This document shows, piece after piece, positions 3,701 to 60,049 of a stretch of 64,000 bases of DNA. Source of the DNA: Euglena gracilis (lineage: Eukaryota); contig CP154954.1 in NCBI GenBank assembly GCA_039621445.1, positions 26,486,954 to 26,550,953 of the forward strand. The letters are read 5' to 3'. Numbering within the stretch: the first letter of the stretch is position 1; each line of letters begins with the position of its first letter. The notes under the pieces were generated by a model that saw only the letters and a list, made by a program, of their open reading frames with translations, had not been told where the DNA came from and made no database searches. The position numbers and the translations under genes are program-made.

Positions 3701-6700
3701 TGAAGGAAAGCCCATTGCCCCAAAAACCACATTACTTATATTTTTTCACAAATTTTCGCAAGTTTCTGCCTGTGTTTCTGCATTTCATTCCAAGGAAATA
3801 TCACCTCACCACAAGGTGCCAAAACCAGGCTTATGATACAAGAAGTTGACGGCTTCCCCCAATTTGTGTCCTCTCGCAAACCAGACAATAATTCCAGCAA
3901 TCTCAAGGAGGACCGGTCCCTTTTATTTTCAAAAGGTTTTGATTTAAAAAGAAAGAAAGCAAGAATTGGGAAAAATTACTCTGGCGGTTCTGTCCCAGGC
4001 CTTGTGTCTGCTACCCCAAACACAACCAAAAAAAAGCTGTTGGTAGTTTGCAACGCCCGAAACAGATGGCGTGGCAGTTGGGGTCCCACTTGGCGTGGCG
4101 GACGGTGTGCCGGTGGGCGTCGCCGACGGTGTGCTGGTGGGGGTGCCAGACGGCGTCGCGGAGGGCGTGCCTGTCGGAGTGGCCGAGGGCGTCGTTGTTG
4201 GTGTGCCGGAGGGCGTCGCGGACGGGGTGGCGGTGGGCGTGGCGGACGGTGTGGCGGAAGGCGTGCCGGTGGGCGTGGCGGATGGGGTGGTGGTGGGCGT
4301 GCCGGAAGGGGTGGCGGTTGGAGTGGAGGTTGGGGTGGTGGATGGGGTGGTGGTGGGGGTGCCGGACGGCGTGGCGGAGGGTGTGCCGGTTGGCGTCGCG
4401 GACGGTGTGGCGGAGGGCGTGCCAGTTGGGGTGGGGGCAGAAGCAGAGCTCTGAATGGAAATGGGTCCAAAACGCTTCAGATGATGAAAAAAAGCTCTCT
4501 CTGTTACCCCAAGGTACCAAGGCACGAAGAAAGTGGCAGAATCTTCCGCTCTCCAAATGCCCCACACATATGTCCTTTTGGCCATCTTCCAGCCCCAGCT
4601 CTCGGAGGTTTTAAGATGGTGTGACTTGAAAAGAACTCCAGGGAGGGTGAGAAATGATACAATCGTCACCAGGGAATACACGTCCCAAACATATGGCCCG
4701 TGAATATATGTGTATGTGTGTATGTGTGAATATACATAAACAGCAAAGTTGCGAAACACGCTGTGGGTTGAGTTGCATTTGTGGCAGCCTTAAACTCCTG
4801 CCCTTGGGGGGGGGGTCTCCAGTAAGTGAACGATCGGGGGGATTAGACCACCTGGCGTTTTTCACAACAGGGACCTTTGCTTTTACTTCCCCAAACAAAT
4901 GTGTGATACAGCATCCCTGCTCCTTAGGGTTTTGGTTAATTGTGAGGGATAGGATCATGTTTAGGGTTTGGACTGGGGTTTGGGCTAGAATTTAGGCCGG
5001 TGGGCCCAGATGTAGGCCAGTATTAGGCTTAACTTAATCCAAATTTTGGCCCAGTTTCGGCAGAACCCCCTAACCTCCCAACTTTGGCTGAACCCTAACC
5101 TGCATCGCTCTTAAAAGAAACCACAACCATGATCCTTTGCCTAAAAATACAGAATTCCTCAAAATATGCCGACGTTAGACAATGGACCCCCCCCCACATT
5201 AAACCACAGGGACCCCAGGGGTTTAGAACTCCCAGTTGCACATAGGGTTCTGGCCAGAAGGGTGACCAACCAACCAGGGGGTCGGTTGTTGGACCAGGGG
5301 TCTAGAAAAAAAATGTCGGAGGGCACCCAGGACCCCCAAATAAGGTCAAATTTTCCTTCCGCGCTTTGCGCTGAAAATATTGGACAATTTGATAATTTTG
5401 CTCTATACAATCGTCCCCAGGGAGTACACATCCCAAACATACGGCCTGTGAATATGTGTGTGAATATATATAACATATAATACTATATATAACATATAAT
5501 ACTAAATATAAACAGCGAAGAAACGAAACACGCCGTGGGTTGAGTTGCATGTGGGGGGTCTAAAAGGGTCTAAAAAAAAAGGGTGGAAGGGAACCCGGGA
5601 CCCAAATAAGGTCAATCTTTTCTTTACGCCCTGTGCTTTGCGCCAAAAATTTGGGAAATTTGGTATTGTTTTGCTCAAAAAAAAGTACCAAAATTGGCAT
5701 TTGGCCGATTTTTGGTCGATTTTGGGTACAAAATTTTTCGGTCCGGCGCTCAGCGCCAGGCCAAACCTCTGAAAAAAGTGTCATTCAACCGGGGGGGGGG
5801 GGTCGTTCGACATTGGGGGGTTGTTGGACATAGAGGGGGGAGGAGGGTAGTTTAAGGGTGCCGCTTATGTGTGGGGGTTTCCCAAAGCCTGACTGGTCGG
5901 CCCACCAAACAACCAAAATGATTATTCAACTTGCCATCTGCCCGAAGGGAAAAAGGCAGGCTTAAAACCAAGGGAAGTAAGTTGAGTGATTTCCCCAAAG
6001 AGGGAATTGGCAGGGAGCAGGGAGGGAATTGATATGAAAGGTCTTCGGAAGAACTGTGGGAAAATTGTGGAAAAACTGCGGGAGTTGCAGGTTTGGGGGT
6101 TGGCACACTTCCTCTGGAAGGGACTTCAAAAAATTGCACAAATTTGGCCATTTTGCAACATAGATGTAAATTTTGAGCCGTTATTCACATTCTTTCCAAC
6201 AAAAAGGTCCAAGAAAATGAGTTTTTGTAATTTTGGGAACATGCTGATTCTGGAAATATGGAATTCCTTGGATGAAGCATCCAAAAATGGCAAAAAAAAT
6301 GACAAAAACTTTGTTATCAGGTAGACTATGGTCAGGATGAAAAATTTTCTCAGTCCGAAATTATTTCCCAGCAGAACTCGGGGAAAACACTACAAACAGG
6401 CCAAAAATTTGCCAAAATTTGTTCAAAATTTGCAAATTTTGGCAAATTTTGGCAAGCATGCAACAAAATAAACACTCCCCCCAATAGCACCCCCCCAACC
6501 CCCCCTCGGGGTCCGATTTCGGGGACCGAATTAATACCCCCCCCCCCAATTTCGGGCCAACGACCCAAGAATCACAATCTCTGACAACAAATTACGAAAA
6601 AAAAATATTTTTCTGGATCGTCTGGCCGCCAAAAATGCCAAATTTCATGAAAAAGTGAAGAAAAAAAATACCCCAAAGGGGGTTTTGGGTACTATTTTGG

Positions 6701-9700
6701 GTCCTGCGGGGCTTCAAAGATTTGGAAAATTTTGGGGTGCCATTACCCCCCAAATAACACCCCCCCCTCGGGCCGGGACTTCGAGCGAAAAAAAAATAAT
6801 ACCCGGGGGGGGTATTATTTGAGGGAGGTAAGCAAAAAAAGCACCTGGATGCCCTTATGAAACGTTCGAGAAGTGACCGGAACTCATTTTACCTTTGCAT
6901 TTCAGGTTCAGTCGAAGAAAACTGCAGAAAGGGGGGAAAATGCGGGGAAATTGCAGAAAATTTGTGGAAATTGCGGGGAAATTGCGGAAATCGCGCAAAT
7001 TGCGGAAAATTGCAGAAATTGTGGGAAATTTGCGGATATCAATCCGCCGAGCGGGGGAGGATACGACACAGCAATGGGGCTCCGTCCTGGGCAGCTGAAG
7101 GGGTGGCAGTTGGGGTCCCACTTGGCGTGGCGGACGGTGTGCCGGTGGGCGTCGCCGACGGTGTGCTGGTGGGGGTGCCAGACGGCGTCGCGGAGGGCGT
7201 GCCTGTCGGAGTGGCCGAGGGCGTCGTTGTTGGTGTGCCGGAGGGCGTCACGGACGGGGTGGCGGTGGGCGTGGCGGACGGTGTGGCGGAAGGCGTGCCG
7301 GTGGGCGTGGCGGATGGGGTGGTGGTGGGCGTGCCGGAAGGGGTGGCGGTTGGAGTGGCGGTTGGGGTGGCGGATGGGGTGGTGGTGGGGGTGCCGGACG
7401 GCGTGGCGGAGGGTGTGCCGGTTGGCGTCGTGGACGGTGTGGCGGAGGGCGTGCCAGTTGGGGTGGGGGCAGAAGCAGAGCTCTGAATGGAAATGGGTTC
7501 CAGAAGATCATGAAAGGAAGCTGAGATAAGAATGTCCTCCAAACGAATATCTCCCCCCTTGTCTGCAATGTGGCTATTGGTTTGACGCCTGTTATCCCTT
7601 ATTCTGGCCTGGCGCTGCTTTTCGCCTCTGGCCCTTTTTGTCTGTGTGCGTGGAGGTGGCCGGAGCCTGGCGGGACTGACTTCCTTTACGACGCTGTCCA
7701 CCATGTCCACCAAGTGGCTGCCAGGCACATACTCCACTTTAGTTGGGTGGGGGGTCTTCTTCACCGTGACTACGCTCTGGTAACTCCAGTCCATGACCCC
7801 AGCAGGTGTGGTTCGGACGAGTCCCCTGAGTTGGGAAGGAACTTGTGGGTGGGTCTGTCCTAGGCCCGAAGGCACCTCATGGGGCAGCCCTGTCCCGCGA
7901 GTACACCCACTTGGAATCTGGTCAAGAACCCCCCTCCTGGGGACAAAGGCAAACCTAATTTCACCTACCCCCCCCCCCCCGGAAGCTGTCACCTGAGAGG
8001 TCGGTACGAGACCAGAACAGGGCGTCGCTAAACCATCCAGGGGGGTCCAGCTGAGAGGCTGGAACATATGGGCTGGTTGGGAAAAGGCTGCTAGCTGACC
8101 CCCCCCCCCCACAGGGCTGAAACGAGCCCCGACCCGGGGACGACGACATGGGTGGCAAAAATCGAAACTGCAAAAATGTCCCCCAAAAACAGCCAATTAA
8201 GCAAGAAGTCGATTGTTTGACCGAAAATTATCCTGGCCCGCCCATTTCCGACCCATCTCCTCCCCATTTTTATCCCATTGATTACACCCCAAAAGTAAAA
8301 AAAAAATGGCAGCTGGAAAATAGCTAAAACTCGTCAATGGGGGGGAGGGCGGTTCGACGCTGGAAAAAGCCCCCCCTCCATCCTGGTGGGGGATGGGATG
8401 TCCTCCAGCTAAAGTGATGCATGGCACCGGAAATCCTGACAACTTCCTGCTGTGACAGATTGGCTGGTACCAGGGACCTTGACAATTTCCCAGATGGGAA
8501 ACTGCCAGGTTCCCTTCAGGCTCACTCTGGGAAAACGTTGAACACAAGCATTTTGAAACACTAAAAAAAAGGCCTTAAACTATGGCAACAGAAATTGTGT
8601 GTTTGGGGTCCTTTTCATGCAGACCTTTGTGTTGTTGGTCAGACATGTAAATCAGGTGTTCGACGAAGGGGTTGCCATAACTCTTTTTTAGCAGTGGGCA
8701 AACAATACTCTTTTATTTGATGGATGGATGCAGGATGTGCAATAAGTTATAAAAAGAATGAAACGTAAATGTTGTCACCCGATTATGCGATGTATTTCCG
8801 AGAAGCGAAAAATCGACTCACAAGAATGACGAGGATGTATGAACGCCGAGATGACTGGTGCACTGGTGCAATTCCGCAAAGAAAATTGTGTAAATGACTT
8901 CCAATTCTTTCTCTTCTGAGTCCCCAGAGTTTCATGGGATGGGAATGTTCCCCCTTGTTACCCCAAGGTTCCAAGGCACACAAAAAAAAGTGGCAGAATC
9001 TTCCGCTCTCCAAATGCCCCACACAAATGTCCTTTTGGCCATCTGCCACCCCCAGCGCTCAGAGCTCTTAAGGTGGTGTGACTTGAAAAGAACTGCAGGG
9101 AGGGTAAGAAATGATACAATCCTCCCCAGGGAATACACATCCCAAACATATGGCCTGTGAATATGTGTGTGTGAATATATATAACATAAAAATACTATAT
9201 ATAACATATAATACTAAATATAAACAGCGAAGAAACGAAACACACCGTGGGTTGAGTTGCACGTGGGGGGTCTAAAAGGGTCTAAAAAAAAAGGTTGGAG
9301 GGCACCCGGGACCCAAATAAGGTCAATCTTTTCTTTACGCCCTGTGCTTTGCGCCAAAAATTTGGGCAATTTGATATTGTTTTGCTCAAAAAAAGTACCA
9401 AAATTGGCATTTGGCCGATTTTTGGCCGATTTTGGGTAAAAAATTCTTCGGCCCGGCGCTCAGCACCAGGCCAAACCTCCGAAAAAAGTGTCCTTCGACC
9501 GGGGGGGGGGGTCGTTCGACATTGGGGGGGTTGTTGGACATAGAGGGGGGAGGAGGGTAGTTTAAGGGTGCCACTTATGTTTGGGGGTTTCCCAAAGCCT
9601 GACTGGTCGGCCCACCAAACAACCAAAATGATTATTCAACTTGCCATCTGCCCAAAGGGAAAAAGGCAGGCTTAAAACCAAGGGAAGTAAGTTGAGTGAT

Positions 9701-12700
9701 TTCCCCAACGGAGGAATTGGCATGGAGCAGGGCAGGCTTCTTTTTAAGACCCCCGGGGGGGAGGGGGGGGGGCCCCCCACCCACCCAGGGTGGCGCAGGA
9801 CCCCCCCCCCCGGGGGGGGGGGGGCCAGGGACCCCCCCCAAAATCGGGCCCGTTAAAGGCAATTTTCAAAAATTTTCGGCGCTTTGCGCCGAAAAGGTAT
9901 ACCCAGCGCCTCCGGCGCGGGACCCCCCCCCCCCGGGGGGGGGGGGGGCCGGCCCGGACCCACCCCCCCCCCCCCCCCCCCCCCCCCGGGGGGGGGGGGT
10001 CAGGTGACTTAAAAAGAAGCCTGGAGCAGGGAGGGAATTGATATGAAAGGTCTTCGGAAGAACTGTGGGAAAATTGTGGAAAAACTGCGGGAGTTGCAGG
10101 TTTGGGGGTTGGCACACTTCCTCTGGAAGGGACTTCAAAAAATTGCACAAATTTGGCCATTTTGCAACATAGATGTAAATTTTGAGCCGTTATTCACATT
10201 CTTTCCAACAAAAAGGTCCAAGAAAAGGAATTTTTGTAATTTTGGGAACATGCTGATTCTGGAAATATGGAATTCCTTGGATGAAGCATCCAAAAATGGC
10301 AAAAAAAAATGACAAGAACTTTGTTATCAGGTTGAATATGGTCAGGATTTAAAATTTTCTCAGTCCGAAATTATTTCCCAGCAGAACTCGGGGAAAACAC
10401 TACAAACAGGCCAAAAATTTGCCAAAATTTGTTCAAAATTTGCAAAATTTGGCAAATTTTGGCAAGCATGCAACAAAATAAACACTCCCCCCAACAGCAC
10501 CACCCCCCCAACCCCCCCTCGGGGTCCGATTTCGGGGACCGAATTAATACCCCCCCCCCAATTTCGGGCCAACGACCCAAGAATCACAATCTCTGAAAAC
10601 AAATTACGAAAAAAAATTATTTTTCTGGATCGTCTCGCCGCCAAAAATGCCAAATTTCATGAAAAAGCGAAGAAGAAAAAAAAAGACCCCAAAGGGGGTT
10701 TTGGGTACTATTTTGGGTCCTGCGGGGCTTCAAAGATTTGGAAAATTTTGGGGTGCCATTACCCCCCAAATAATACCCCCCTCGGGCCGGGACTTCGGGC
10801 GAAAAAAAATAATACCCGGGAGGGTATTATTTGAGGGAGGTAAGCAAAAAAAGCACCTGGATGCCCTTATGAAACGTTCGAGAAGTGACCGGAACTCATT
10901 TTACCTTTGCATTTCAGGTTCATGCAAAGAAAACTGCAGAAAGGGGGGAAAATGCGGGGAAATTGCAGAAAATTTGTGGAAATTGCGGGGAAATTGCGGA
11001 AATCGCGCAAATTGCGGAAAATTGCAGAAATTGTGGGAAATTTGCGGATATCAATCCGCCGAGCGGGGGAGGATACGACACAGCAATGGGGCTCCGTCCT
11101 GGGCAGCTGAAGGGGTGGCAGTTGGGGTCCCACTTGGCGTGGCGGACGGTGTGCCGGTGGGCGTCGCCGACGGTGTGCTGGTGGGGGTGCCAGACGGCGT
11201 CGCGGAGGGCGTGCCTGTCGGAGTGGCCGAGGGCGTCGTTGTTGGTGTGCCGGAGGGCGTCACGGACGGGGTGGCGGTGGGCGTGGCGGACGGTGTGGCG
11301 GAAGGCGTGCCGGTGGGCGTGGCGGATGGGGTGGTGGTGGGCGTGCCGGAAGGGGTGGCGGTTGGAGTGGCGGTTGGGGTGGCGGATGGGGTGGTGGTGG
11401 GGGTGCCGGACGGCGTGGCGGAGGGTGTGCCGGTTGGCGTCGCGGACGGTGTGGCGGAGGGCGTGCCAGTTGGGGTGGGGGCAGAAGCAGAGCTCTGAAT
11501 GGAAATGAAGATGATGAAAGGAAGCTGAGATAAGAATGTCCTCCAAACGAATATCTCCCCCCTTGTCTGCAATGTGGCTATTGGTTTGACGCCTGTTATC
11601 CCTTATTCTGGCCTGGCGCTGCTTTTCGCCTCTGGCCCTTTTTGTCTGTGTGCGTGGAGGTGGCCGGAGCCTGGCGGGACTGACTTCGTTTACGACGCTG
11701 TCCACCATGTCCACCAAGTGGCTGCCAGGCACATACTCCACTTTAGTTGGGTGGGGGGTCTTCTTCACCGTGACTACGCTCTGGTAACTCCAGTCCATGA
11801 CCCCAGCAGGTGTGGTTCCCAAGTCAGTGAACGAGTCCCCTGAGTTGGGAAGGAACTTGTGGGTGGGTCTGTCCTAGGCCCGAAGGCACCTCATGGGGCA
11901 GCCCTGTCCCGCGAGTACACCCACTTGGAATCTGGTCAAGAACCCCCCTCCTGGGGACAAAGGCAAACCTAATTTCACCTACCCCCCCCCCGGAAGCTGT
12001 CACCTGAGAGGTCGGTACGAGACCAGAACAGGGCGTCGCTAAACCATCCAGGGGGGTCCAGCTGAGAGGCTGGAACATATGGGCTGGTTGGGAAAAGGCT
12101 GCTAGCTGACCCCCCCCCACAGGGCTGAAACGAGCCCCGACCCGGGGACGACGACATGGGTGGCAAAAATCGAAACTGCAAAAATGTCCCCCAAAAACAG
12201 CCAATTAAGCAAGAAGTCGATTGTTTGACCGAAAATTATCCTGGCCCGCCCATTTCCGACCCATCTCCTCCCCATTTTTATCCCATTGATTACACCCCAA
12301 AAATAAAAAAAATGGCAGCTGGAAAATAGCTAAAACTCGTCAATGGGGGGAGGGCGGTTCGACGCTGGAAAAAGCCCCCCCCTCCATCCTGGTGGGGGAT
12401 GGGATGTCCTCCAGCTAAAGTGATGCATGGCACCGGAAATCCTGACAACTTCCTGCTGTGACAGATTGGCTGGTACCAGGGACCTTGACAATTTCCCAGA
12501 TGGGAAACTGCCAGGTTCCCTTCAGGCTCACTCTGGGAAAACGTTGAACACAAGCATTTTGAAACACTAAAAAAAAGGCCTTAAACTATGGCAACAGAAA
12601 TTGTGTGTTTGGGGTCCTTTTCATGCAGACCTTTGTGTTGTTGGTCAGACATGTAAATCAGGTGTTCGACGAAGGGGTTGCCATAACTCTTTTTTAGCAG

Positions 12701-15700
12701 TGGGCAAACAATACTCTTTTATTTGATGGATGGATGCAGGATGTGCAATAAGTTATAAAAAGAATGAAACGTAAATGTTGTCACCCGATTATGCGATGTA
12801 TTTCCGAGAAGCGAAAAATCGACTCACAAGAATGACGAGGATGTATGAACGCCGAGATGACTGGTGCACTGGTGCAATTCCGCAAAGAAAATTGTGTAAA
12901 TGACTTCCAATTCTTTCTCTTCTGAGTCCCCAGAGTTTCATGGGATGGGAATGTTCCCCCTTGTTACCCCAAGGTTCCAAGGCACACAAAAAAAAGTGGC
13001 AGAATCTTCCGCTCTCCAAATGCCCCACACAAATGTCCTTTTGGCCATCTGCCACCCCCAGCGCTCAGAGCTCTTAAGGTGGTGTGACTTGAAAAGAACT
13101 GCAGGGAGGGTAAGAAATGATACAATCCTCCCCAGGGAATACACATCCCAAACATATGGCCTGTGAATATGTGTGTGTGAATATATATAACATAAAAATA
13201 CTATATATAACATATAATACTAAATATAAACAGCGAAGAAACGAAACACACCGTGGGTTGAGTTGCACGTGGGGGGTCTAAAAGGGTCTATAAAAAAAAA
13301 GGTTGGAGGGCACCCGGGACCCAAATAAGGTCAATCTTTTCTTTACGCCCTGTGCTTTGCGCCAAAAATTTGGGCAATTTGATATTGTTTTGCTCAAAAA
13401 AAAAGTACAAAAATTGGCATTTGGTCGATTTTTGGCCGATTTTGGGTACAAAATTTTTCGGCCCAGCGCTCAGCACCAGGCCAAACCTCCGAAGAAAGTG
13501 TCCTTCAACCGGGGGGGGGGGTCGTTCGACATTGGGGGGTTGTTGGACATAGAGGGGGGAGGAGGGTAGTTTAAGGGTGCCGCTTATGTTTGGGGGTTTC
13601 CCAAAGCCTGACTGGTCGGCCCACCAAACAACCAAAATGATTATTCAACTTGCCATCTGCCCAAAGGGAAAAAGGCAGGCTTAAAACCAAGGGAAGTAAG
13701 TTGAGTGATTTCCCCAACGGAGGAATTGGCAGGGAGCAGGGAGGGAATTGATATGAAAGGTCTTCGGAAGAACTGTGGGAAAATTGTGGAAAAACTGCGG
13801 GAGTTGCAGGTTTGGGGGTTGGCACACTTCCTCTGGAAGGGACTTCAAAAATTGCACAAATTTGGCCATTTTGCAACATAGATGTAAATTTTGAGCCGTT
13901 ATTCACATTCTTTCCAACAAAAAGGTCCAAGAAAAGGAATTTTTGTAATTTTGGGAACATGCTGATTCTGGAAATATGGAATTCCTTGGATGAAGCATCC
14001 AAAAATGGCAAAAAAAAATGACAAGAACTTTGTTATCAGGTAGAATATGGTCAGGATTTAAAATTTTCTCAGTCCGAAATTATTTCCCAGCAGAACTCGG
14101 GGAAAACACTACAAACAGGCCAAAAATTTGCCAAAATTTGTTCAAAATTTGCAAAATTTGGCAAATTTTGGCAAGCATGCAACAAAATAAACACTCCCCC
14201 CAATAGCACCCCCCCCCCAACCCCCCCTCGGGGTCCGATTTCGGGGACCGAATTTATACCCCCCCCCCAATTTCGGGCCAACGACCCAAGAATCACAATC
14301 TCTGAAAACAAATTACGAAAAAAAATATTTTTCTGGATCGTCTCGCCGCCAAAAATGCCAAATTTCATGAAAAAGTGAAGAAGGAAAAAAAAAGACCCCA
14401 AAGGGGGTTTTGGGTACTATTTTGGGTCCTGTGGGGCTTCAAAGATTTGGAAAATTTTGGGGTGCCATTACCCCCCAAATAATACCCCCCCCTCGGGCCG
14501 GGACTTCGAGCGAAAAAAAATAATACCCGGGGGGGGGGGTATTATTTGAGGGAGGTAAGCAAAAAAAGCACCTGGATACCCTTATGAAACGTTCGAGAAG
14601 TGACCGGAACTCATTTTACCTTTGCATTTCAGGTTCATGCAAAGAAAACTGCAGAAAGGGGGGAAAATGCGGGGAAATTGCAGAAAATTTGTGGAAATTG
14701 CGGGGAAATTGCGGAAATCGCGCAAATTGCGGAAAATTGCAGAAATTGTGGGAAATTTGCGGATATCAATCCGCCGAGCGGGGGAGGATACGACACAGCA
14801 ATGGGGCTCCGTCCTGGGCAGCTGAAGGGGTGGCAGTTGGGGTCCCACTTGGCGTGGCGGACGGTGTGCCGGTGGGCGTCGCCGACGGTGTGCTGGTGGG
14901 GGTGCCAGACGGCGTCGCGGAGGGCGTGCCTGTCGGAGTGGCCGAGGGCGTCGTTGTTGGTGTGCCGGAGGGCGTCACGGACGGGGTGGCGGTGGGCGTG
15001 GCGGACGGTGTGGCGGAAGGCGTGCCGGTGGGCGTGGCGGATGGGGTGGTGGTGGGCGTGCCGGAAGGGGTGGCGGTTGGAGTGGCGGTTGGGGTGGCGG
15101 ATGGGGTGGTGGTGGGGGTGCCGGACGGCGTGGCGGAGGGTGTGCCGGTTGGCGTCGTGGACGGTGTGGCGGAGGGCGTGCCAGTTGGGGTGGGGGCAGA
15201 AGCAGAGCTCTGAATGGAAATGGGTTCCAGAAGATCATGAAAGGAAGCTGAGATAAGAATGTCATCCAAATGAATATCTCCCCCCTTGTCTGCAATGTGG
15301 CTATTGGTTTGACGCCTGTTATCCTGTATTCTGGCCTGGCGCTGCTTTTCGCCTCTGGCCCTTTTTGTCTATGTGCGTGGAGGTGGCCGGAGCCTGGCGG
15401 GACTGACTTTGTTTACGACGCTGTCCACCGTGTCCACCAAGTGGCTGCCAGGCACACACTCCACTTTAGTTGGGTGGGGGGTCTTCTTCACCGTGACTAC
15501 GCTCTGGTTACTCCAGTCCATGACCCCAGCAGGTGTGGTTCCCAAGTCAGTGGACGAGTCCCCTGAGTTGGAAAGGAACTTGTGGGTGGGTCTGTCCTAG
15601 GCCCGAAGGCACCTCATGGGGCAGCCCTGTCCCGCGAGTACACCCACTTGGAATCTGGTCAAGAACCCCCCTCCTGGGGACAAAGGCAAACCTAATTTCA

Positions 15701-18700
15701 CCTACCCCCCCCCCCCCCCGGAAGCTGTCACCTGAGAGGTCGGTACGAGACCAGAACAGGGCGTCGCTAAACCATCCAGGGGGGTCCAGCTGAGAGGCTG
15801 GAACATATGGGCTGGTTGGGAAAAGGCTGCTAGCTGACCCCCCCCCCACAGGGCTGAAACGAGCCCCGACCCGGGGACGACGACATGGGTGGCAAAAATC
15901 GAAACTGCAAAAATGTCCCCCAAAAACAGCCAATTATGCAAGAAGTCGTTTGTTTGACCGAAAATTATCCTGGCCCGCCCATTTCCGACCCATCTCCTCC
16001 CCATTTTTATCCCATTGATTACACCCCAAAAATAAAAATAAAATGGCAGCTGGAAAATAGCTAAAACTCGTCAATGGGGGGGAGGGCGGTTCGACGCTGG
16101 AAAAAGCCCCCCCCCTCCATCCTGGTGGGGGATGGGATGTCCTCCAGCTAAAGTGATGCGTGGCACCGGAAATCCTGACAACTTCCTGCTGTGACAGATT
16201 GGCTGGTACCAGGGACCTTGACAATTTCCCAGATGGGAAACTGCCAGGTTCCCTTCAGGCTCACTCTGGGAAAACGTTGAACACAAGCATTTTGAAACAC
16301 TAAAAAAAAAGGCCTTAAACTATGGCAACAGAAATTGTGTGTTTGGGGTCCGTTTTCATGCAGACCTTTGTGTTGTTGGTCAGACATGTAAATCAGGTGT
16401 TCGACGAAGGGGTTGCCATAACTCTTTTTTAGCAGTGGGCAAACAATACTCTTTTATTTGATGGATGGATGCAGGGTGTGCAATAAGTTATAAAAAGAAT
16501 GAAACGTAAATGTTGTCACCCGATTATGCGATGTATTTCCGAGAAGCGAAAAATCGACTCACAAGAATGACGAGGATGTGTGAACGCCGAGATGACTGGT
16601 GCACTGGTGCAATTCCGTAAAGAAAATTGTGTAAATGAGTTCCAATTCTTTCTTTTCTGAGTCCCCAGAGTTTCATGGGATGGGAATGTTCCCCCTTGTT
16701 ACCCCAAGGTTCCAAGGCACACAAAAAAAAAGTGGCAGAATCTTCCGCTCTCCAAATGCCCCACACAAATGTCCTTTTGGCCATCTGCCACCCCCAGCGC
16801 TCAGAGCTCTTAAGGTGGTGTGACTTGAAAAGAACTGCAGGGAGGGTGACAAATGATACAATCGTCCCCAGGGAATACACATCCCAAACATACGGCCTGT
16901 GAATATGTGTGTGTGAATATATATAACATATAATACTATATATAACATATAATACTAAATATAAACAGCAAAGAAACGAAACACATCTGGGGGGTCTAAA
17001 AGGGTCTAAAAAAAAAAGGTTGGAGGGCACCCGGGACCCAAATAAGGTCAATCTTTTCTTTACGCCCTGTGCTTTGCGCCAAAAATTTGGGCAATTTGAT
17101 ATTGTTTTGCTCAAAAAAAAGTACCAAAATTGGCATTTGGCCGATTTTTGGCCGATTTTGGGTACAAAATTTTTCGGCCCGGCGCTCAGCACCAGGCCAA
17201 ACCTCCGAAGAAAGTGTCCTTCAACCGGGGGGGGGGGTCGTTCGACATTGGGGGGTTGTTGGACATAGAGGGGGGAGGAGGGTAATTTAAGGGTGCCGCT
17301 TATGTTTGGGGGTTTCCCAAAGCCTGACTGGTCGGCCCACCAAACAACCAAAATGATTATTCAACTTGCCATCTGCCCGAAGGGAAAAAGGCAGGCTTAA
17401 AACCAAGGGAAGTAAGTTGAGTGATTTCCCCAACGGAGGAATTGGCAGGGAGCAGGGAGGGAATTGATATGAAAGGTCTTTGGAAGAACTGTGGGAAAAT
17501 TGTGGAAAAACTGCGGGAGTTGCAGGTTTGGGGGTTGGCACACTTCCTCTGGAAGGGACTTCAAAAATTGCACAAATTTGGCCATTTTGCAACATAGATG
17601 TAAACTTTGAGCCGTTATTCACATTCTACCAACAAAAAGGTCCAAGAAAATGGATTTTTGTACACCCCCCCCCTATGTCCAATGACCGGTAACCTCTGTC
17701 CTCCGACCGGGGGGGGGGTCGTTGGACATAGGGTAGTGACCAAAAAGGTGTCCTCTGACCGGGGGGGGGGGGGTTGTTGGACACAGGGTCAAAAGAAATT
17801 TCGGTGGGTACCCGGGTCCCTACCCACCCAAAAATGCCCAAATTTTCCCTTCCGGCGCTTCGCGCCGAAAATTTTGGGCAATTTTGACAAATTTTTGTCC
17901 AAAAAGTGTCAAAAATGGCATTTTGGCCAAATTTTTGGCCAATTTTTGGGCAAAATTTTTCGTCCCGGCGCTTCACGCTGGGACCAAAAAAAATGGTCAA
18001 ACCTCCGAAAAGGTGTCCTCTGACGGGGGGGTGGTCATTGGACATAGGGGGGTCGTGGACATAGGGGGGGGGGTAATTTTGGGAACATGGTGATTCTGGA
18101 AATATGGAACTCCTTGGATGAAGCATCCAAAAATGGCAAAAAAAATGACAAGAACTTTGTTATCAAGTAAAATATGGTCAGGATGTAAAATTTTCTCAGT
18201 CCGAAATTATTTCCCAGCAGAACTCGGGGAAAACACTACAAACAGGCCAAAAATTTGTCAAAATTTGTTCAAAATTTGCAAAATTTCGCAAATTTTGGTA
18301 AACAGGCCAGAAATTTGCCGAAATTTGTTCAAAATTTGCAAAATTTGGCAAATTTTGGCAAGCATGCAACAAAATAAACACTCCCCCCAATAGCACCGCA
18401 CAACCCCACCAATAAAAACACATCTGGGGGTCCGATTTTTCGGGGAAACAGTATCGCCGAATTAATACCATAGGCCCCCCCCCCCCCCCCCAATTTCGGG
18501 CCAACGACCCAAAAATCACAATCTCTGACAACAAATTACGAAAAAAAATATTTTTCTGGATCGTCTGGCCGCCAAAAATGCCAAATTTCATGAAAAAGTG
18601 AAGAAGAAAAAAAAAGACCCCAAAGGGGGTTTTGGGTACTATTTTGGGTCCTGCGGGGCTTCAAAGATTTGGAAAATTTTGGGGTGCCATTACCCCCCAA

Positions 18701-21700
18701 ATAATACCCCCCCCTCGGGCCGGGACTTCGGGCGAAAAAAAATAATACCCGGGGGGGGGTATTATTTGAGGGAGGTAAGCAAAAAAAGCACCTGGATGCC
18801 CTTATGAAACGTTCGAGAAGTGACCGGAACTCATTTTACCTTTGCATTTCAGGTTCATGCAAAGAAAACTGCAGAAAGGGGGGAAAATGCGGGGAAATTG
18901 CAGAAAATTTGTGGAAATTGCAGGGAAATTGCGGAAAATCACGCAAATTGCGGAAAATTGCAGAAATTGTGGGAAATTTGCGGATATCAATCCGCCGAGC
19001 GGGGGAGGATACGACACAGCAATGGGGCTCCATCCTGGGCAGCTGAAGGGGTGGCAGTTGGGGTCCCACTTGGCGTGGCGGACGGTGTGCCGGTGGGCGT
19101 CGCCGACGGTGTGCTGGTGGGGGTGCCAGACGGCGTCGCGGAGGGCGTGCCTGTCGGAGTGGCCGAGGGCGTCGTTGTTGGTGTGCCGGAGGGCGTCGCG
19201 GACGGTGTGGCGGTGGGCGTGGCGGACGGTGTGGCGGAAGGCGTGCCGGTGGGCGTGGCGGATGGGGTGGTGGTGGGCGTGCCGGAAGGGGTGGCGGTTG
19301 GAGTGGCGGTTGGGGTGGCGGATGGGGTGGTGGTGGGGGTGCCGGACGGCGTGGCGGAGGGTGTGCCAGTTGGCGTCGCGGACGGTGTGGCGGAGGGCGT
19401 GCCAGTTGGGGTGGGGGCAGAAGCAGAGCCATAACGGCTGACAGGTTTGCTGGTATTGGCGGGGGAAAAATCCAAGAATTCTGTGAATCCAGTGGAAATG
19501 CACGGTGTGCGCTATTTTCCGCTGTTGTTGCTTGGGTAGAATTTCTCGACCCATTTCAGCGCTCGAAGTGGAGTTTAAGGCCAGGGGGAAAATTACCATT
19601 TTGGAATTGCTTTAGGGGAGGGGGGGGGTAGCGAACGGGTAACTGGTGAGTTCTTCTTTGGGTACCCTCCAGGTCCAACCTCTCATCCTCCTCCCAGATC
19701 CCTTTTCCCAGGTCCCTCCCATTAGGCTCCCAGGATTTTCTTCATTTATTTGAAATATTTGGTGAACTGCATGTGCTCGACCATCTATCATTTTTTCTTC
19801 TCCCACTGATCAGCTTCCAGTGCTCCCGCTGTTCCATTCTGCTAAATTGATGTGAGGTTAGCACTGCCTACTCTAACAGTTCTGTGTACTTTACCTTCAA
19901 CACTTTCTTGTTTATGATTCCAAAACCCTCGGGGGAGGGTCCTGTGTAACCTTGTATGAGATATTATTTATCACAGATTTTGAAGCTTTGCTGGAGTAAA
20001 TTTCTACCGATTCCAAATCAGACCAAATGGAATATGTAATATGTTCGAAAAATTCACCAAATCTATAAAAAAAATTTGGCCGCCTCTGACACACTCTTGG
20101 GGGGGGGGGTCTGTATGGTTGCACTGGAGTGGTGTGACCTGCGGCCGGGACCACAGGTGTGTATCCAGGCTAAGTCGTCAGCTGGCTGCAGGGTGCGATC
20201 CATGAGAGACCGAAACGCTGAGAAACTGAAATCTGCGAGAAACCCTTTGCAAAAGAAAACAACCGCCGAGGTCCGCATATTTAGCCCCCCCCCCCCCCCG
20301 AAACTGTCATATAACTGGTCAACGGCTCCCCCATCCCCCAACCGAAACCTATTTCTTGGTAAACCATTACCAGTGGGGGGGGTGCATGAGATTGTGACCT
20401 CTTCAAAGAACAATTTCTTCCACATTCATACGCCACAGAAACAGAAAAAATTCATATGACCCTAAGAGGGGGTGAAAAATATCGTTTTTTTTTAACGAAA
20501 TACCACTGTACAGCTATATACCAATATAGATAGAACCCCCGAACCACGAAATACCAATATGGATAGAACCCCCCCTGAAGTGGACCCCCCCACCCTAAAC
20601 ACCGGCTCCTTTCTGGGCGGCCGAAGGGGTATCCGTGGGTGTCCCGGATGGGGTGGTGGATGGGGTGCCAGTGGGTGTTGCGGAAGGTGTGCTAGTGGGC
20701 GTGTTGGATGGCGTTGCGGAGGGGGTGCCGGTTGGTGTTGCCGACGGGGTGGCGGTGGGAGTGCCGGAGGGTGTCGCCGAGGGGGTGCTGGTGGGGGTGC
20801 CAGAGGGTGTGCTGGTGGGCGTTCCAGTTGGGGTGGGGGCAGAAGCAGAGCGCGGGATTGGAAACAAAACCCCACGCAAAATATAAATAAATAAATACCT
20901 GGGAATACTATTTGGGTATCCGATGTCAGGGGCTGGAGGGGAATATTACTTGGGCATATTTTTCACACTGGAAAATACACCCCTCCCCCAAAACGTACAT
21001 TTAAACATAATTTCTGTGCTTTGTGCGGGCAGCCGAAGCAAGGGGGGGTATGGCATTTTTTAGGAGTGGACTCCTTCGGGGGTAGGATGCAGCGCCTTGT
21101 GCACTGTGGCTTTACCCCCTTGTTTCAAGGCTGCGCCGTTGGCACCAGGCTTTTGCTCAAGGACCCCGGGGGGGTCCACTGGCTGGAATTTGGACTAGCT
21201 AGAAAAAGTGGACTAGCTAGACCCCCCTCCCCCCCGGGGGGGGGGGTCCGGGGTCCCCCAACTGGAAATAAAATTTCCTCCGGCGCTGTGCGCCGAGGTG
21301 GAAATGAGGCTTTTAATAGGTTTTTGGCTGATTTTGTTCCAAAAATTCCCAAAAATGGCCAAAAAGGGGCATTTTTTGGCCATTTTTGGGGGGTCCCAAA
21401 AAAAATCCGGCGCTTTGCGCCGGTCACTGGCAGACTGGAAAAGAATTTCACTTGCTAGGGGGGGGGGTCTGCTAGAAATCCCATTAGCCAAATTTGGACT
21501 AGCTGCAGTCCAGCCCCCCCGGGGGAGTACTGCAATCCCTTAAGCAGAAGCCTGGTTGGCACAGAGAACGTGTCAAAAATGTTCTCGTCACAGCACTTCG
21601 ACGGGGAAAAACCTCCAACTGGAATGTGCTGTTGACATGGGGCAGGTGAATGCGCTCAGCAGGGGGATCTGGAACCAGAACCCCTGGCCGCTACTGCTTG

Positions 21701-27700: not shown

Positions 27701-30700
27701 AAATAATTTTTATGATTTAATATCGCTTTTTTTGCATTTGCGTGTTTCAGAGAAGCTTTTTTTGCAATTTGTTGCGATGATTACCATAAATTGGCTGAAA
27801 ATACCCAAAATGGCATTAAAAAGGCCAATAACTCCAAAAAAATGGTTCCAAATTACCCAGAATGACTCAAATTGATGTAAGTGTGTGAGAGTGTGACAAA
27901 CGAAAAAAAGCTGTTTAAAGTTAGTTTAAAAAATTCCCAAAATGGCCAAAAGCGGCCAAAAAAAATGTAAAAAAAAGGCCAAAACAGCCCAAAATGGCCA
28001 TATACCTCCATGTGTGGCCAATTTTTTTGGCGGACCTGTCCCCCCCCCCAATCTGATGACCACCCCCCCCCCAGGTCAGAGACAGACATTGGCTTTTTTA
28101 GCGACCGCCGGGGAGCGTTCGATGGCCAAAGTAATCTCAGCAACCATTGTGCTCAAATAATGCTCAATTAGCTCAATTGAAACCAACCAAACTTGGGTCG
28201 CAAGTGTTCCCTGTTGCAAGGAATGGTACATCCTGCCCTCTGTCCTTGACACGCCAAAATACGGGGGAAATGCGGTTGACAGGGGGGGTGTCATGGACAC
28301 GCTGTGTTATGTGCAATGGACAAGAAAGAAAATGGCATGTTGGGTACGGGAAAACTGTAGTGCGGGGGAGGGGGGGAATCAACCAAGCACCTTCCAACAT
28401 AACGACACACCACGCTGCTGCTGGATCGATGGGGTCACAACAGGGGGGGCAGCCCTGGACGTATCGGTGGGCGTGCCGGTTGGCGTGGTGGAGGGGGTGC
28501 CGGTGGGGGTTGCGGACGGCGTGCCGGTGGGGGTGCCGGACGGCGTGGCGGAGGGCGTGTGCGTCGCCGTGGCGGACGGCGTGGAGGAGGGGGTGCTGGT
28601 GGGGGTGGGGGCAGGGGCTGAGCTTGCACGACCATGACGGCAGCCTCACACTTGTGGGCCCCCGGGGGGGGGGCACCAGTATGATGGGAGGTTGTCCATC
28701 CATGGTCCAGAAAGCGTGATGTGTGTACTCCGGGAACGTCTGCCCAATTGGAGTGGTTTTTTTTGAATTTTCCGCCAGGTGTGAGAATTAACGCCTAATT
28801 CAAGCCCAGTCTTATGCCTAAATGCCCAACCCCAACTTTTTCCTCCGAATATGAAATGCAAGGTGCGGGATCCATCGCGTGCCTGACCACCTCCACGCTT
28901 GAAAAACGTCCAAGGTTCCTCAAGGGGGATACAAGGGGACCATTAAGATGAGGCTGCCAGCATTTCTTCCAATCAGCCCATCGGTGCAAGTGTCGGTGGA
29001 TGTGTCTCATTTGTTATTAGTTGCCATCAAGGGTGGGGGTTGTATGGGAAGGCCATGAGGGGGGGAGGGTCGACCTCCACCGACAATGTCACCGCGCAAA
29101 AAAAAATATGATGAATCCAAAAAAATCCAAAAAAAATATGGGAAGGTGGTCGCTCAAGCTCCTGGAAAAATGGGAAGCTGGTCGTGGGGTGGGGGCAGAC
29201 CTCACCAAACAAACCCGTCAGTGATGTGGGGGGCTTGCCGCCCATCCCAGCCCCCCAGAGGGCTTCCGGGATTCCCATCCGGCCACAGTTCAGGGGGCAA
29301 GTGTTTGGGAAGTGTTTGGGCTTCAGCTCCCGGTGCAGACACAAATTTGAGTAGCAGGCAGAGATGTCTGTACCGTGCACGACCAGGGCTGTATGGGAAG
29401 ACCTGGTGGGCAGAGGTCGACCCCCCCCCACCACCCACCATCCATAGGCTTTCAAGGATTTTTGCAGCGCCGCCTGTTGTGCCTGAGCGAGGACATCCGC
29501 CGACGGCGGGCCTCGCTCGGCCAGCGGCTAGGCCAACAGTTGGGAAGCCAGCCAGCCAGGTGTGTGCACACGACGGACAAGCCGGCGTGTGCGTGGGCCG
29601 AGATTAGGGTGTCGGCCCTAATTTTTTTTAAGACCGGGGGCCCCCCCCCCCCCCCACCCACCCACCCCCTGGGCCCACCCCCAGGGGGTCCCAGGGGACC
29701 CACTCCATTTTCCCTGAAAATGGCCCAAAAATCGCGAAAAGTGCCAAAAATAGCACCTTTTTCAAAAAATTTGGTGCCTTCGACACCCAAAAGTATAACT
29801 CACCAGCCCCTGGGGGGGACCCCGGGGGGGGGGGGCTCGGCCGGACCCACCCACCCTACCCTCTCCCTCCCTGAGGGTCCACAATTAAAAAAAACCCCTG
29901 GCCGAGATGGAAAACCACAAGGTGCAAAAAAAAAGGCAGAGGCAGAAAACATGAGGGGCAGCAGCGGCAATTTCAATGCAGGTTCACCCTCGGTCCCTCC
30001 TTCCTTCAGGAGGATTGAGGCGCACTTTCTTGTGGGCCATTTTTGGAGGAAAAAAAATTCAACCGGCGCTCACCGTCACACACGGCTCAGCCCTGAGCAG
30101 CAGAGGGCGTGGCCGTGGAGGTGGCAGTGGGAGTCGCGGATGGCGTGCCCGAAGGGGTGGCCGACGGCGTCGCGGTGGGTGTTCCGGTTGGTGTGGCGGA
30201 CGGTGTGCTGGTGGCCGTCGCGGACGGCGTGCCGGTGGGGGTGCTGGACGGCGTGGCGGAGGGCGTGTGCGTGGTCGTGGCGGAGGGCGTGGCAGGATTT
30301 AGACGGTGGGGAGGGCGGCCGGCAATATGAACGAATGTGAGAAACATATCTGCCCCCCCCCTCGGGACATTGACCTGACAACTCAGCGAGTACGGGCGTA
30401 CATGACAACTTTCCAGTGCGGTTACGTGGCATGGTTGTGGACTTTCTAATGTATCACGTCAGCCATTACGCCACGTCAGTCAGTATGCACTCCAAGGTGA
30501 CAACTGCACGAGGGGGGGGGGGTAGGGGGGGGGGGCGAAATGAATTAAACGCCAGAACAATTTTTGGGGGGTTGATCACTCAGTCGAGAGCCAGGAAAGG
30601 CAGATCGGATAGGTTTGCGGTTGCTCAAAAAAAAAACACAAAAAAAAACACAAAAAGACGCAAATTGCAAGGGAAAACCTTGTCAGGCTTCTTTTTAAGA

Positions 30701-33700
30701 CCCCCGGGGGGGGAGGGGGGGGGTCCCCCCCCCCACCCACCCAGGGTGGCGCGGCCCCCCCCGGGGGGGGGGGGGGGCGGGGACCCCCCCAAAATCGGGC
30801 CCGTAAAAGGCAATTTTCAAAAATTTTCGGCGCTTCGCGCCGAAAAGGTATACCCAGCGCCTCCGGCGCGGGCCCCCCCCCCCCCCCGGGGGGGGGGGGG
30901 GGTCCGGCCCGGACCCACCCACCCACCCCCCCCCTCCCCCGGGGGGGGGGGGGTCTGCTGACTTAAAAAGAAGCCTGAACCTTGAGGTCCGAGATGCACA
31001 TCTTTCCATTGGAGAGGACTTAAAAAAAATTTTAGCTCCGATGGGGAAAATTTTCCATTTTCCATAAAAAAAAAAGCATTTGTTGACCAAAAAATGCAAC
31101 AATGACTAAAAAATGCCAAAAATTTTGGTCTCAGGGGAAAATCGAGGCCAAAACGAGAAATTTTCCAGAGTCAAAAATATTTTCATGGAAAAATCCAAAA
31201 AACGTTTGGGGGGGAAACAAAAAATGCAAAATAAATAGGAAGAGGCTCGGGAGTCTCTTGAAACGCCGTTCGAGGTCGTTGGAGGAGGCTCGATAGCCTC
31301 CTCGAATGCTGTTCGAGGTTGTTCGAGGGGGACCCCCAAAAAATTCAATTTTTTACTTCCTAAACTTCAGTCCAATATTTTTTGTACTTCGGACAAATTT
31401 TCGCCCAAAAAAAGTGCCAAGAATGGCATTTGGGCCGATTGGGGGAAACTTTTCCAGCCCGGCTCTTCGCGCCTGAAAAAGAAGGTCCGCTGGTCCCACC
31501 TGCCCTTCGTTGAACCCTGCCCCCCCCCCTTCCCCCAGGGAAATCGACCGCCTGCCCACCCAACACCCACCTAAAATCAACCGGCCGTGCTGGACTGATC
31601 CATGGGGTCCCCCAAAGCCTGGGGAGGGGGGCTTCCAACCCACCCACCCACTCTTGAAAACTCAACCTCCCATGGGAGGGGTCACACAAAGCGTTAAATG
31701 AATGAACCTAATATCACACGCTCTTGATGTCTATGTTCTGGGATTGTGCCGTTCACGCGGGTAGGTGTCATGGACGGGGAGGGAGGGAGGGCGGGCAGCA
31801 ATCCAGCAAATTGGACGGTGGCAAACTATCCGTTTCCATCGAACAAGTTGGCTGGAGGCGGGGACCTTGATTGTTTTGACTACTCAAATAGTACCAGAGG
31901 CCAGACAATTTCCCCGGCATGGAGGTATCCAAACCAGTGGAAGGAAAGGATGCCAATGAAACAAATGCAAAGTTGGGGAACGTTGGGGTACTCATGAGCA
32001 AATATACATTATCATATCTTAAATTGAAATTGGGGGCAAGGTGTATCTGTTTCGAGCGGGAAGAAATGTTGGCTGCAAAAAAAAGGGTGTTGAGGCAGTG
32101 TGCGCTCGAGTGGCTGGCCCTCTGCGCCGCCTAAAACAGAAGGGGTGCCTGAAGGCGTGGCTGTTGGAGTTGCGGTGGAGGTACCAGATGAAGTGGTGGT
32201 GGGTGTGCTGCTGGGGGTGGGCGCAGGGGCAAAGCAGAAAATACCACGCCACACGGCGCTTTTGCGGGCTGGACCTATTCGCGCCACTGCAGAACCTCGA
32301 AGAGCATGGAGCAAGGTCGGACGCACAGACAGGAGTGGTCGTGACACCGCCCCATTCTGATCCCGAAGAAGAACCCCTCCCCAAGGTTTTGGCTCCTTGG
32401 GGGGTCTTAAACAGGTGGGACATAGAAGTCTGAGTGCCGTTTGTGTGTGAGGCTACTGTCTGAACAAATTGCCCGTGGCATTACATTTTTCCAATTGTCC
32501 TTAGGGGTTAAAGCTGACGGACTCAATGCGAAGCTTGTTGATGCCTGTTGATGTTGATGCGATGTGGTGCAGGCTTGTTTTAAGAACACAGGGGGAAGTG
32601 GGATGATACCTTCTGCTGTGTGGTGCCCACCACAATCCCTGGGGGGGGGGGTCGATGAGCTCTAATCCTTTGATGGGTAAGAGCGAAACCCACCACCAAG
32701 AAAAACCCTCCTCTGACCCCCCATGCAAAAATGGCTGATGAGAACGATGGGAAGTCAGTCATTTTATTGGGATGAAGATTTTTCGTAGAATTTTCCTTTG
32801 TGATGAAAAGCAATATGCGACCCTTTGCCAATATGCGACACCTGGCCAAAAAAAAGATAACCACCTTTAAGACGAATTTGCAGGGTCGCACCTATTCAGG
32901 ATGCAAATCTGACCCCCCCCTCCCCATGACCCAGTAGCCCATTCCAGGAACTTTGTTTCAATGAAAAATGGCCATTGAGTTCCAGGATTCCAGGAGAGTT
33001 GCGCTTCTGATTTACCTAATTTGCACCAAGTTCGAGTATGTCTGTTTGACTTGGTCTAGCACCAAAAAGGACTGCAAAAAAACACACAATTTCTGCAAAA
33101 AACGTGCATTTTGGAAATAAATACATTGCCCCAGGAAACTGCCACCTGACAAGTACAATACCAGGACCCTAATAACTCTCTCTAATGACGGGTTGGCGAG
33201 TACCGGGGACCCTGACAGTTTCCGAGGCAGGAACCTAACACACAGAGGGGGTAATGGCCGCACAGCATACTTATGACCCCACCTGCTGCACCCAGCATGG
33301 GCTCGCAGGTCCATTGTTTCCCTGCTGCGGGGACCCCAAGAGTCCTGCCTGCTCATAGCACCCCTTTGGGGGGAGGATCCTTCCTTTAAAAAAAAATGTG
33401 CACACACACACACATACTCACTCACTCATCACTCACTCACTCACTCACTCACTCACTCACTCACTCACTCACTCACTCACTCACTCACTCACTCACTCAC
33501 TCACTCACTCACTCACTCACGCACGCACGCACGCACTCACTCACTCACTTGCATGCATGTACACTTGTATGAGTGAGTGAGTGAACACGTGCATGCACAC
33601 TCACCATTCACTCATTCATACACACGTATGCACAGGCGCAATCATACAGACACATGCAGAAACGCACACAGCATTGCCCTGGGCGGCGGACGGCGTCCCC

Positions 33701-50739: not shown

Positions 50740-50938
50740 GACCGCTGCTATGGCGTCAGCGTATGTGGAAGACCCCCTGGCGTTCGAAGCGGGATGGCCG
50801 GTTGCCTGAGCCGCCCCCCCGGCAGGCGGCCGGCGCCCGGCGGACCCGGGGCTGCGGCGGGCTCGAGCCGGCGACCGCGACCGTGACCGTGACCGCGCCC
50901 AGGCGCCGAGGGCTTCCCACGCCTCGTGTCGCCGCTGC
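50740..50938 (-). CDS. Probable GC-rich exon of the RRM/RS gene; frame and boundaries unresolved
   Basis: GC-rich island. One frame reads RSRSRSRSPARARRSPR. Both a CTGaccct| end and a ctgcag| end are present at its 5' side. Confidence 0.4.
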
Positions 50939-51045
50939 AGGGTCAGAAGTTCAGTTCCCGGACGTTAGATCCGGAAAACCAAATCCAACGCTGTGAACGT
51001 CAGTCTGCCTGTGGATGAGGGTGGGGGGGGGGGGCTGCTCCTCGG

Positions 51046-51097
51046 TGCCTGAGAGGGACCGGGATGGGGACCGCCGTGAGCGAGGGGGGTGGCGCGC
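51046..51097 (-). CDS. RS-rich exon (ARHPPRSRRSPSRSLSG), lower boundary uncertain
   Basis: Pyrimidine tract ttttcgtgtcctccgcag|GCG, phase 0, matching the donor at 54349. Confidence 0.55.
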
Positions 51098-59900: not shown

Positions 59901-60049
59901 AGGGTACGGGGGGGGCAGGGGGTAGGCGGGGGGTGGGGGGGGGAGGGGTCCCGGGTTTTTCTTTTCCCAGCAGGACCGTCCGATACCACAATGTACTCAT
60001 GTGACAGAACCAGTGCCAATTCACCGCCGCCACCCTAAGCCACTGCCCG

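Follow-up and report, generated by a model that had tools for sequence, protein, structure and literature searches.

A 64,000-nucleotide stretch of the Euglena gracilis genome (GenBank assembly GCA_039621445.1, contig CP154954.1, positions 26,486,954 to 26,550,953 of the forward strand; this whole stretch is hereafter called the window, and all coordinates refer to it) carries at 9725-10031 a young non-autonomous DNA transposon, i.e., a MITE (miniature inverted-repeat transposable element), together with its 8-bp target site duplication (TSD). The element, denoted A1, starts with CAG and ends with CTG, and the base-level fit of such a CAG...CTG MITE and its 8-bp TSD to the splicing code published for the nonconventional introns of this species is correct. 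The fit of this young transposon supports, without proving, the idea that such transposons seed the odd introns of Euglena. In its present place, A1 is a passenger in non-coding DNA and not an intron itself, and it most likely lies within a long predicted intron of a Thr/Pro/Ser-rich gene on the minus strand.

The finding bears on where the nonconventional introns of euglenids come from and which machinery removes them; 71.8% of the E. agilis introns are reported to be nonconventional (PMC12501133). So far, the MITE hypothesis of their origin has drawn only on what the introns themselves look like, and free, recently mobile elements whose ends and TSD length fit the code would make it directly testable.

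A young transposon and its empty sites

The order across 9725-10031 is GAGCAGGG / CAGGCTTCTTTTTAAG ... CTTAAAAAGAAGCCTG / GAGCAGGG, and the parts of the element, along with the corresponding sites lacking it, are as follows:

9725-9732: left TSD copy, GAGCAGGG, 8 bp
9733-10023: MITE A1, 291 bp, terminal inverted repeats (TIRs) at 9733-9748 and 10008-10023
10024-10031: right TSD copy, GAGCAGGG, 8 bp
6015-6022: paralogous empty site, one GAGCAGGG
13734-13741: paralogous empty site, one GAGCAGGG
17450-17457: paralogous empty site, one GAGCAGGG

The TIR, CAGGCTTCTTTTTAAG, has its exact reverse complement at 10008-10023 (16/16), and the interior of the element is marked by C/G runs and a hairpin, CGGCGCTTTGCGCCG, at 9877-9891. 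The exact 16-nt end occurs four times in the window, namely at both ends of A1 and both ends of a second element at 30684-30977; with up to three mismatches allowed, there are six matches against 0.68 expected, a number that was reached in 0/100 shuffles of the window.

When the window was compared with itself, a tandem repeat was seen whose ~3.7-kb units (6014-9736, 10023-13744 and 13733-17662) are 97-98% identical and one of which is interrupted by A1, the alignment breaking exactly at 9736/10023. Both the insertion and the accompanying 8-bp duplication are shown directly, because three paralogous units hold a single GAGCAGGG and no element (the uninterrupted site, GGCAGG-GAGCAGGG-AGGGAATTG, lies at 6009, 13728 and 17444). 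A1 inserted once the 3.7-kb unit had already multiplied, its insertion being younger than the ~2% divergence among the units, and it is judged to be young because its TIRs and TSD are perfect while paralogous units of 97-98% identity are empty.

Apart from A1, the window contains four more young elements and one decayed copy (coordinates in brackets include the TSD or the flanks):

21146-21554 (21138-21562): MITE B1, 409 bp, CAG...CTG, ends CAGGCTTTTGCTCAAGG...CCTTAAGCAGAAGCCTG, TSD GTTGGCAC 8/8, TIR 12/14
29605-29900 (29597-29908): MITE A4, ends TAGGG...CCCTG, TSD GCCGAGAT 8/8
30684-30977 (30676-30985): MITE A2, 294 bp, CAG...CTG, TSD AACCTTGT/AACCTTGA 7/8, TIR 16/16
33887-34144 (33879-34152): decayed family-A copy, ends TAGGCTCCTTTTTAAGG...TCCTG, flanks GTTGCTAT/GTTGGAAT 6/8
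36769-37229 (36761-37237): MITE B2, 461 bp, CAT...ATG, ends CATACATC...GATGTATG, TSD CTTTTAAC 8/8, TIR 13/14

The initial annotation of this DNA, made from the letters alone, had placed young MITEs at 9733, 21146, 29605, 30684 and 36769, each set in an 8-bp TSD and running from CAG, TAG or CAT to CTG or ATG; these ends could be read at all five elements, and the TSD is 8 bp long in 5/5 of them (8/8 in four, 7/8 in the one at 30684). The target 8-mers at the five sites show no clear consensus. A1 and A2 are 95.4% identical over the aligned columns (272 matches, 13 mismatches and 15 gap columns, the differences falling mostly within homopolymer runs) and sit in different flanks. The elements have in common a subterminal TTAAG(G/A)CCCC, runs of C/G and, in their interior, the hairpin CGGCGCTTNGCGCCG, which at up to two mismatches is matched 26 times in the window against 0.27 expected. 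With sizes of 291-461 bp, they are too small to code for a transposase. All that membership among MITEs is judged by was found here, i.e., TIRs, a TSD of fixed length with empty sites, and related copies at unrelated sites.

A blind scan of the whole window for inverted repeats of at least 11/14 flanked by exact 8-bp direct repeats, with 30 shuffles as the control, gave five matches (three of the named MITEs and two tandem-repeat artefacts at 58-59.5 kb) against a shuffle mean of 0.07, and the same scan at other repeat lengths gave one match at 7 bp and none at either 9 or 10 bp. The observation of MITEs with 8-bp TSDs is confirmed and lies far beyond chance. A relaxed scan for TIRs and TSDs (at least 6/8) was swamped by low-complexity matches and abandoned. 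The exact 22-nt MITE end found 0 matches among metagenome contigs; a degenerate version of it hit 28 metagenome and 27 prokaryote-genome loci, each with a single match lacking an inverted partner, and these hits were taken as chance. Scans of the window for Rfam families and tRNAs gave no match.

Fit to the splicing code and a transcript-verified intron

The code of E. gracilis nonconventional introns, as derived from knock-ins into an E. gracilis gene, reads 5'-N3CDG-/-CH'GN5-6 with R as the first base past the junction (PMC12501133). According to the same source, removal requires the CAG and CTG motifs, pairing after CAG and before CTG, and a spacer of exactly 3 nt on the donor side; on the acceptor side, the spacer measures 5 nt, 6 being tolerated, and the next exon should open with a purine. 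Wholly synthetic 50-bp introns made to the rule do splice, and CAG-to-TAG and CTG-to-CTA mutants stayed unspliced (PMC12501133).

A1, A2 and B1, taken together with their TSDs, conform to the motif and stem parts of this rule, with 16, 16 and 7 Watson-Crick pairs, respectively, counted from the ends. When the RNAs of A1 and B1 are folded with their flanks, the terminal stem begins exactly at CAG/CTG in the minimum-energy as well as the centroid structures, and the TSD bases are left mostly unpaired (z of -4.7 and -8.7). If an element is removed along with 3 nt from the TSD on its left and 5 nt from the one on its right, a site with one TSD remains, on both strands and for all four perfect TSDs, and the product of such an excision of A1 equals the real empty sites apart from one nearby G/T difference. 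As arithmetic, the earlier claim that the pre-insertion sequence would be restored exactly on either strand therefore stands for the four perfect TSDs; how efficiently the RNA is removed is predicted to hinge on the sixth TSD base in the orientation of the transcript.

That the same geometry is in use in this very window is evident from one gene. An RRM-like open reading frame (ORF) at 54988-55224 on the minus strand matches a 370-aa transcript-derived protein carrying PF00076 (P0001, i.e., eukprot:EG_transcript_16583) at 100% over the matched part, EG_transcript_N being a naming scheme that comes from the paper on the E. gracilis transcriptome (PMC6366073). Exact word mapping put 167/370 residues of this protein on the minus strand, in five exon segments that are all 100% identical:

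63458-63336, minus: residues 89-129
55218-55063, minus: residues 245-296
54463-54350, minus: residues 297-334
51097-51056, minus: residues 335-348
50895-50830, minus: residues 349-370
50895-51054, minus: nonconventional intron of the RRM-protein gene, 160 nt, from the transcript-derived protein

Three complete introns are defined by this mapping, two of them conventional (GTGTGG...TCCAG and GTGTGC...CCGCAG) and one nonconventional. The latter reads ...GGTCCC / TCT CAG GCACCGAGG ... CCTCGGCGC CTG GGCGC / GGTCACGG, i.e., it has TCT as its N3, CAG, a stem of 11/12 pairs, CTG and GGCGC as its N5, after which the exon resumes with G, a purine, and the exon join yields ...S-R-S-R..., as in the protein. 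The geometry of 3 and 5 nt around CAG...CTG is hence verified once in the window, in a non-repetitive gene, and the initial annotation had been right to describe the introns as 3 nt, an inverted-repeat body and 5 nt, a description that also matches the experimental code (PMC12501133). At its ends, CAGGC...GCCTG, the intron has the same five bases as the termini of MITE families A and B. As for the rest of the protein, residues 1-88 would fall past the window end, and residues 130-244 could not be placed anywhere in the window, though the exons flanking the respective gap (55219-63335, minus) match at 100%; possible reasons are a collapsed assembly, a paralog carrying a deletion, or a transcript that is chimeric. 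The gap holds tandem repeats and MITE-like DNA.

The gene predicted around A1 is of a different kind. Between 357 and 35734, 19 Thr/Pro/Ser/Ala-rich coding stretches, which are paralogous exons, lie on the minus strand; by eye, 14/19 of them end with N3-CAG (e.g., CCTTCAGCT / GCC CAG GACGG) and ~13/19 are preceded by CTG-N5 and a purine (e.g., GAGCT CTG CTTCT / GCC). Two of the introns predicted between them are the following:

7471-11104, minus: predicted nonconventional intron holding A1, GCC-CAG-GACGG ... GAGCT-CTG-CTTCT (candidates of this kind are not above chance)
33839-35100, minus: predicted intron, ACC-CTG-GCATG ... GCGC-CAG-GCCCC, CTG-CAG configuration, in frame

The former has a second in-frame acceptor 6 nt further on, and the flank identity of this tandem-unit intron depends on the acceptor chosen (6/8 with one, 4/8 with the other); for the latter, a conventional reading, GT(35090)...AG(33839), is likewise in frame. 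No transcript of the Thr/Pro/Ser-rich gene was found at 1e-10 among proteins of near length, and a search among longer proteins gave low-complexity bacterial matches only, so the introns of this gene, the one at 33839-35100 included, stay predictions. A1, A2, A4, B1 and the decayed copy lie within long predicted introns (the decayed copy being nested in 33839-35100), and B2 lies outside them.

Some side observations on this gene may be added. At 7465-7485, 11477-11497 and 15192-15212, a pair of CTGs 6 nt apart (CTG CTT CTG CCCCC) offers two alternative in-frame acceptors for the predicted tandem-unit intron, the second of which restores a perfect TPSA-TPTG repeat. The region 5405-17662 is an array of ~3.7-kb units, each with one minus-strand Thr/Pro/Ser/Ala-rich coding stretch of ~140 aa with peptide repeats, and a fourth, more diverged unit is seen at 18300-19429; the units may together form a single giant mucin-like gene built of exon-plus-intron units, or else they are an array of genes.

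A proposed path from insertion to intron

The RNA of an A1-like element would present CAG...CTG ends with 16 paired bases and, contributed by the two TSD copies, 3 nt on one side and 5 nt on the other, which amounts to N3-CAG-stem-CTG-N5 followed by a purine. Because 3 and 5 add up to the TSD length, removal of an exonic copy from the mRNA would then leave no scar, and such elements are therefore the likely progenitors of nonconventional introns. We infer that an exonic copy is spliced, that copies of this kind gave rise to present introns and that a hAT-like enzyme mobilises the elements. That MITEs of the A1 kind are a main source of the nonconventional introns of Euglena appears rather probable to us. 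On that view, good tolerance would be predicted only for insertions in which TSD position 6, read in the orientation of the transcript, is a purine. A fuller account, which we put forward tentatively and which may well turn out to go too far, is that the 3- and 5-nt spacers are matched to the 8-bp TSD of still-active CAG...CTG (hAT-like) MITEs, that self-erasure let these become the majority of Euglena introns, and that families A and B are living members of the source.

Published observations on junction repeats bear on the matter. A strain-specific, recently gained nonconventional intron in gapC of E. agilis is reported to have eight-nucleotide direct repeats at its junctions, longer than those of the other introns examined (PMC4770533), and such repeats are just what would be expected of a CAG...CTG element with its 8-bp TSD intact. 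In E. gracilis, 11,656/16,151 nonconventional introns are reported to have borders that are ambiguous through junction repeats (PMC11170887).

Several of our own results, nevertheless, weigh against a transposon origin. Two of the five young MITEs, A4 (TAG...CTG) and B2 (CAT...ATG), lack the CAG/CTG motif and should not splice, since the published CAG-to-TAG and CTG-to-CTA mutants were unspliced. The purine rule is obeyed on one strand per copy only (plus for A1, minus for A2 and B1), with a pyrimidine on the other, which is where the "either strand" of the earlier claim does not carry over to predicted efficiency. In-frame candidates complying with the code are present for all 18 adjacent pairs of Thr/Pro/Ser-rich exons, and yet they are not more frequent than the controls (2.72 per exon pair in frame, 3.58 when out of frame, and 1.60 at randomly chosen places) and had to be rejected as evidence of introns. 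The initial annotation had taken several intron flanks for decayed TSDs, quoting GCCACACC/GCCCCAGC (6/8) at the predicted intron 33839-35100. The quotation is accurate; the interpretation was not borne out when 11 predicted introns (four tandem paralogs collapsed to one) were compared with mismatched pairs, as the flank 8-mers were identical at 4.64/8 versus 4.05/8 positions (p=0.062, not significant), and its own warning that the repeat context inflates such matches was justified, that context making up most of the match. At the transcript-verified intron 50895-51054, the flank 8-mers, GTCCCTCT and GGCGCGGT, agree at 4/8, and the intron body has no match elsewhere in the window beyond C-runs. 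In 20 ORFs of the window, no transposase domain was found (Pfam, no family above the cut-off). Lastly, 0/6 MITE copies in the window lie in a predicted exon or coincide with an intron, which should be regarded as uninformative rather than contrary, as exons occupy only ~15% of that region. The proposal that these MITEs neutralise themselves and are a source of introns is thus upheld in part: the sum of 3 and 5, the code and the gapC repeats speak for it, and the exonic count, the two MITEs without the motif and the flank test do not.

Much of this adverse evidence would be accommodated if the elements were ordinary MITEs with no causal link to introns, the spacers reflecting the geometry of the RNA-cutting enzyme and the sum of eight being a coincidence. 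YAG...CTR ends and 8-bp TSDs are, after all, generic to a large transposon superfamily, no copy in the window sits in an exon or forms an intron, two of five young MITEs are without the motif, the flank signal is not significant and stands at 4/8 for the verified intron, and intron bodies do not look like MITEs. Such an explanation would have to posit three coincidences jointly (the terminal trinucleotides, a stem starting right there, and spacers summing to the TSD), and it sits poorly with the eight-nucleotide junction repeats of the recently gained gapC intron (PMC4770533) and with the frequency of junction repeats among nonconventional introns (PMC11170887, PMC11282704); we consider it unlikely, if still the strongest of the competitors.

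The gapC repeats themselves were read differently by those who described them, as a product of double-strand-break repair (PMC4770533), and on their suggestion new introns arise when such repair captures filler DNA; the repeats would then come from fill-in of staggered breaks, and MITEs would merely accumulate inside introns. The old intron bodies in the window, devoid of MITE features, would agree with that; why introns have inverted CAG...CTG ends at precisely 3 and 5 nt from their junctions would be left unexplained, and the same genome does harbour mobile elements with CAG...CTG ends and exact 8-bp duplications. An origin by repair is held to be quite improbable. Might the direction be the reverse, with the MITEs being excised circular intron RNAs copied back into DNA? 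A review states that nonconventional introns are released in the form of full-length circles (PMC11282704), but re-inserted copies would bring along their old 3-nt and 5-nt spacers, and each copy here has a different 8-mer on both sides, while the empty sites hold exactly one 8-mer, as expected of target duplication by DNA transposition. This last possibility is disfavoured and carries hardly any weight with us.

Superfamily, neighbouring repeats and known systems

Which transposase might mobilise these MITEs is a separate question. The stated hallmarks of hAT transposons are an 8-bp TSD and YARNG ends (PMC3014272); CAGGC (A1, A2 and B1) and TAGGG (A4) fit YAR and CATAC (B2) does not, and the final G of YARNG is present in TAGGG and absent in CAGGC. 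A Merlin transposase is the other candidate: the draft genome of E. gracilis is reported to contain two Merlin families, which show 8-bp TSDs and have kept the DDE motif intact (PMC8101967). The TSD of the MITEs would suit Merlin (8 or 9 bp); the conserved terminal 5'-GG of Merlin TIRs (PMC8101967) is lacking, as the MITE ends are CAGG, TAGG and CATA instead, the inverted repeat, and not the TSD, includes their first two bases, and YAR ends with 8-bp TSDs are what is stated for hAT (PMC3014272). Mobilisation by Merlin consequently seems rather unlikely, and hAT-like, a plausible and unproven assignment judged from the termini, is the better guess. An 884-bp candidate element with Merlin-like ends was observed at 43493-44376 (11/12 inverted ends beginning with GG, GGTTGCAATTGA; flanks 6/8); the ORF inside it has no Pfam match.

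Other repeats of the window may be listed briefly. At 56340-56990 lies a family-B-like MITE whose interior is 91% identical to B1 and whose left end either differs or has decayed, and a second MITE-like piece with the same CGGCGCTTCGCGCCG hairpin follows in this interval; the hairpin also occurs in further fragments, e.g., at 17853, 27236 and 3042. Two apparent combinations of TIRs and an 8-bp repeat (AGCTGTGT) at 58016-59496 end at the same point on the right, within a direct repeat of 81% identity (58222-59177 versus 58992-59899), and are most likely a repeat artefact and not a transposon. At 60049-62175 there is ~2.1 kb of a ~35-bp tandem repeat (75% G+C) with a 957-aa open frame without a Pfam family, and long microsatellites are found at 39225-40142 ((TAGG), ~230 copies) and 33416-33549 ((ACTC), ~34 copies).

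As the initial annotation remarked, a transposon origin had been proposed before in general terms. A MITE-like origin of these introns was put forward in 2014 by authors who noted that euglenid genomes had at that time not yielded any identified transposable elements (PMC3935182); a 2024 review labelled the CAG/CTG arms as TIRs and called the junction repeats TSD-like (PMC11282704); and the MITE suggestion was repeated both in the 2025 paper on the code, where TSDs are unmentioned in the accessible text (PMC12501133), and in a diplonemid paper, which likewise leaves TSDs unmentioned (PMC12621601). In the full-text literature within reach of the search (most subscription journals and supplements lie outside it), neither named MITE families of Euglena, nor a TSD length, nor the point that the spacers sum to the TSD was found. 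The concrete MITE families and the argument from 3 and 5 making 8 hence appear to be new, the general idea of a MITE origin being already known.

Four known systems invite comparison. With the nonconventional introns of euglenids (PMC3935182, PMC4770533, PMC11282704, PMC12501133), the window MITEs share CAG at +4..+6, CTG at -8..-6, the terminal stem, the 3- and 5-nt spacers and the junction repeats; in the accessible parts of those papers, MITE-like ancestors are deduced from the introns, whereas here the free elements themselves are seen, along with their empty sites. Merlin elements of E. gracilis (PMC8101967) come from the same species and likewise have 8-bp TSDs and near-perfect TIRs, unlike the window elements in their 5'-GG ends. 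Non-autonomous hAT elements (e.g., those of Anolis, PMC3014272) resemble the window MITEs in the 8-bp TSD, the short TIRs with CAG/TAG and the length of a few hundred bp, and differ in that one family here begins with CAT, that the fifth base is C and not the G of YARNG, and that no transposase partner was seen in the window. The fourth system is that of the introners of Micromonas, dinoflagellates and others (PMC11282704), which are MITE-like DNA transposons that carry TIRs and TSDs and turn into introns, their TSD giving part of the splice signal and the insertion being neutralised. Introners are removed by the spliceosome and are recognised as many near-identical intron copies (PMC11282704); copies of the window families coincide with gene introns in 0/6 cases in this window and are not introns, and their removal would be non-spliceosomal, with the whole TSD put to use as the two spacers.

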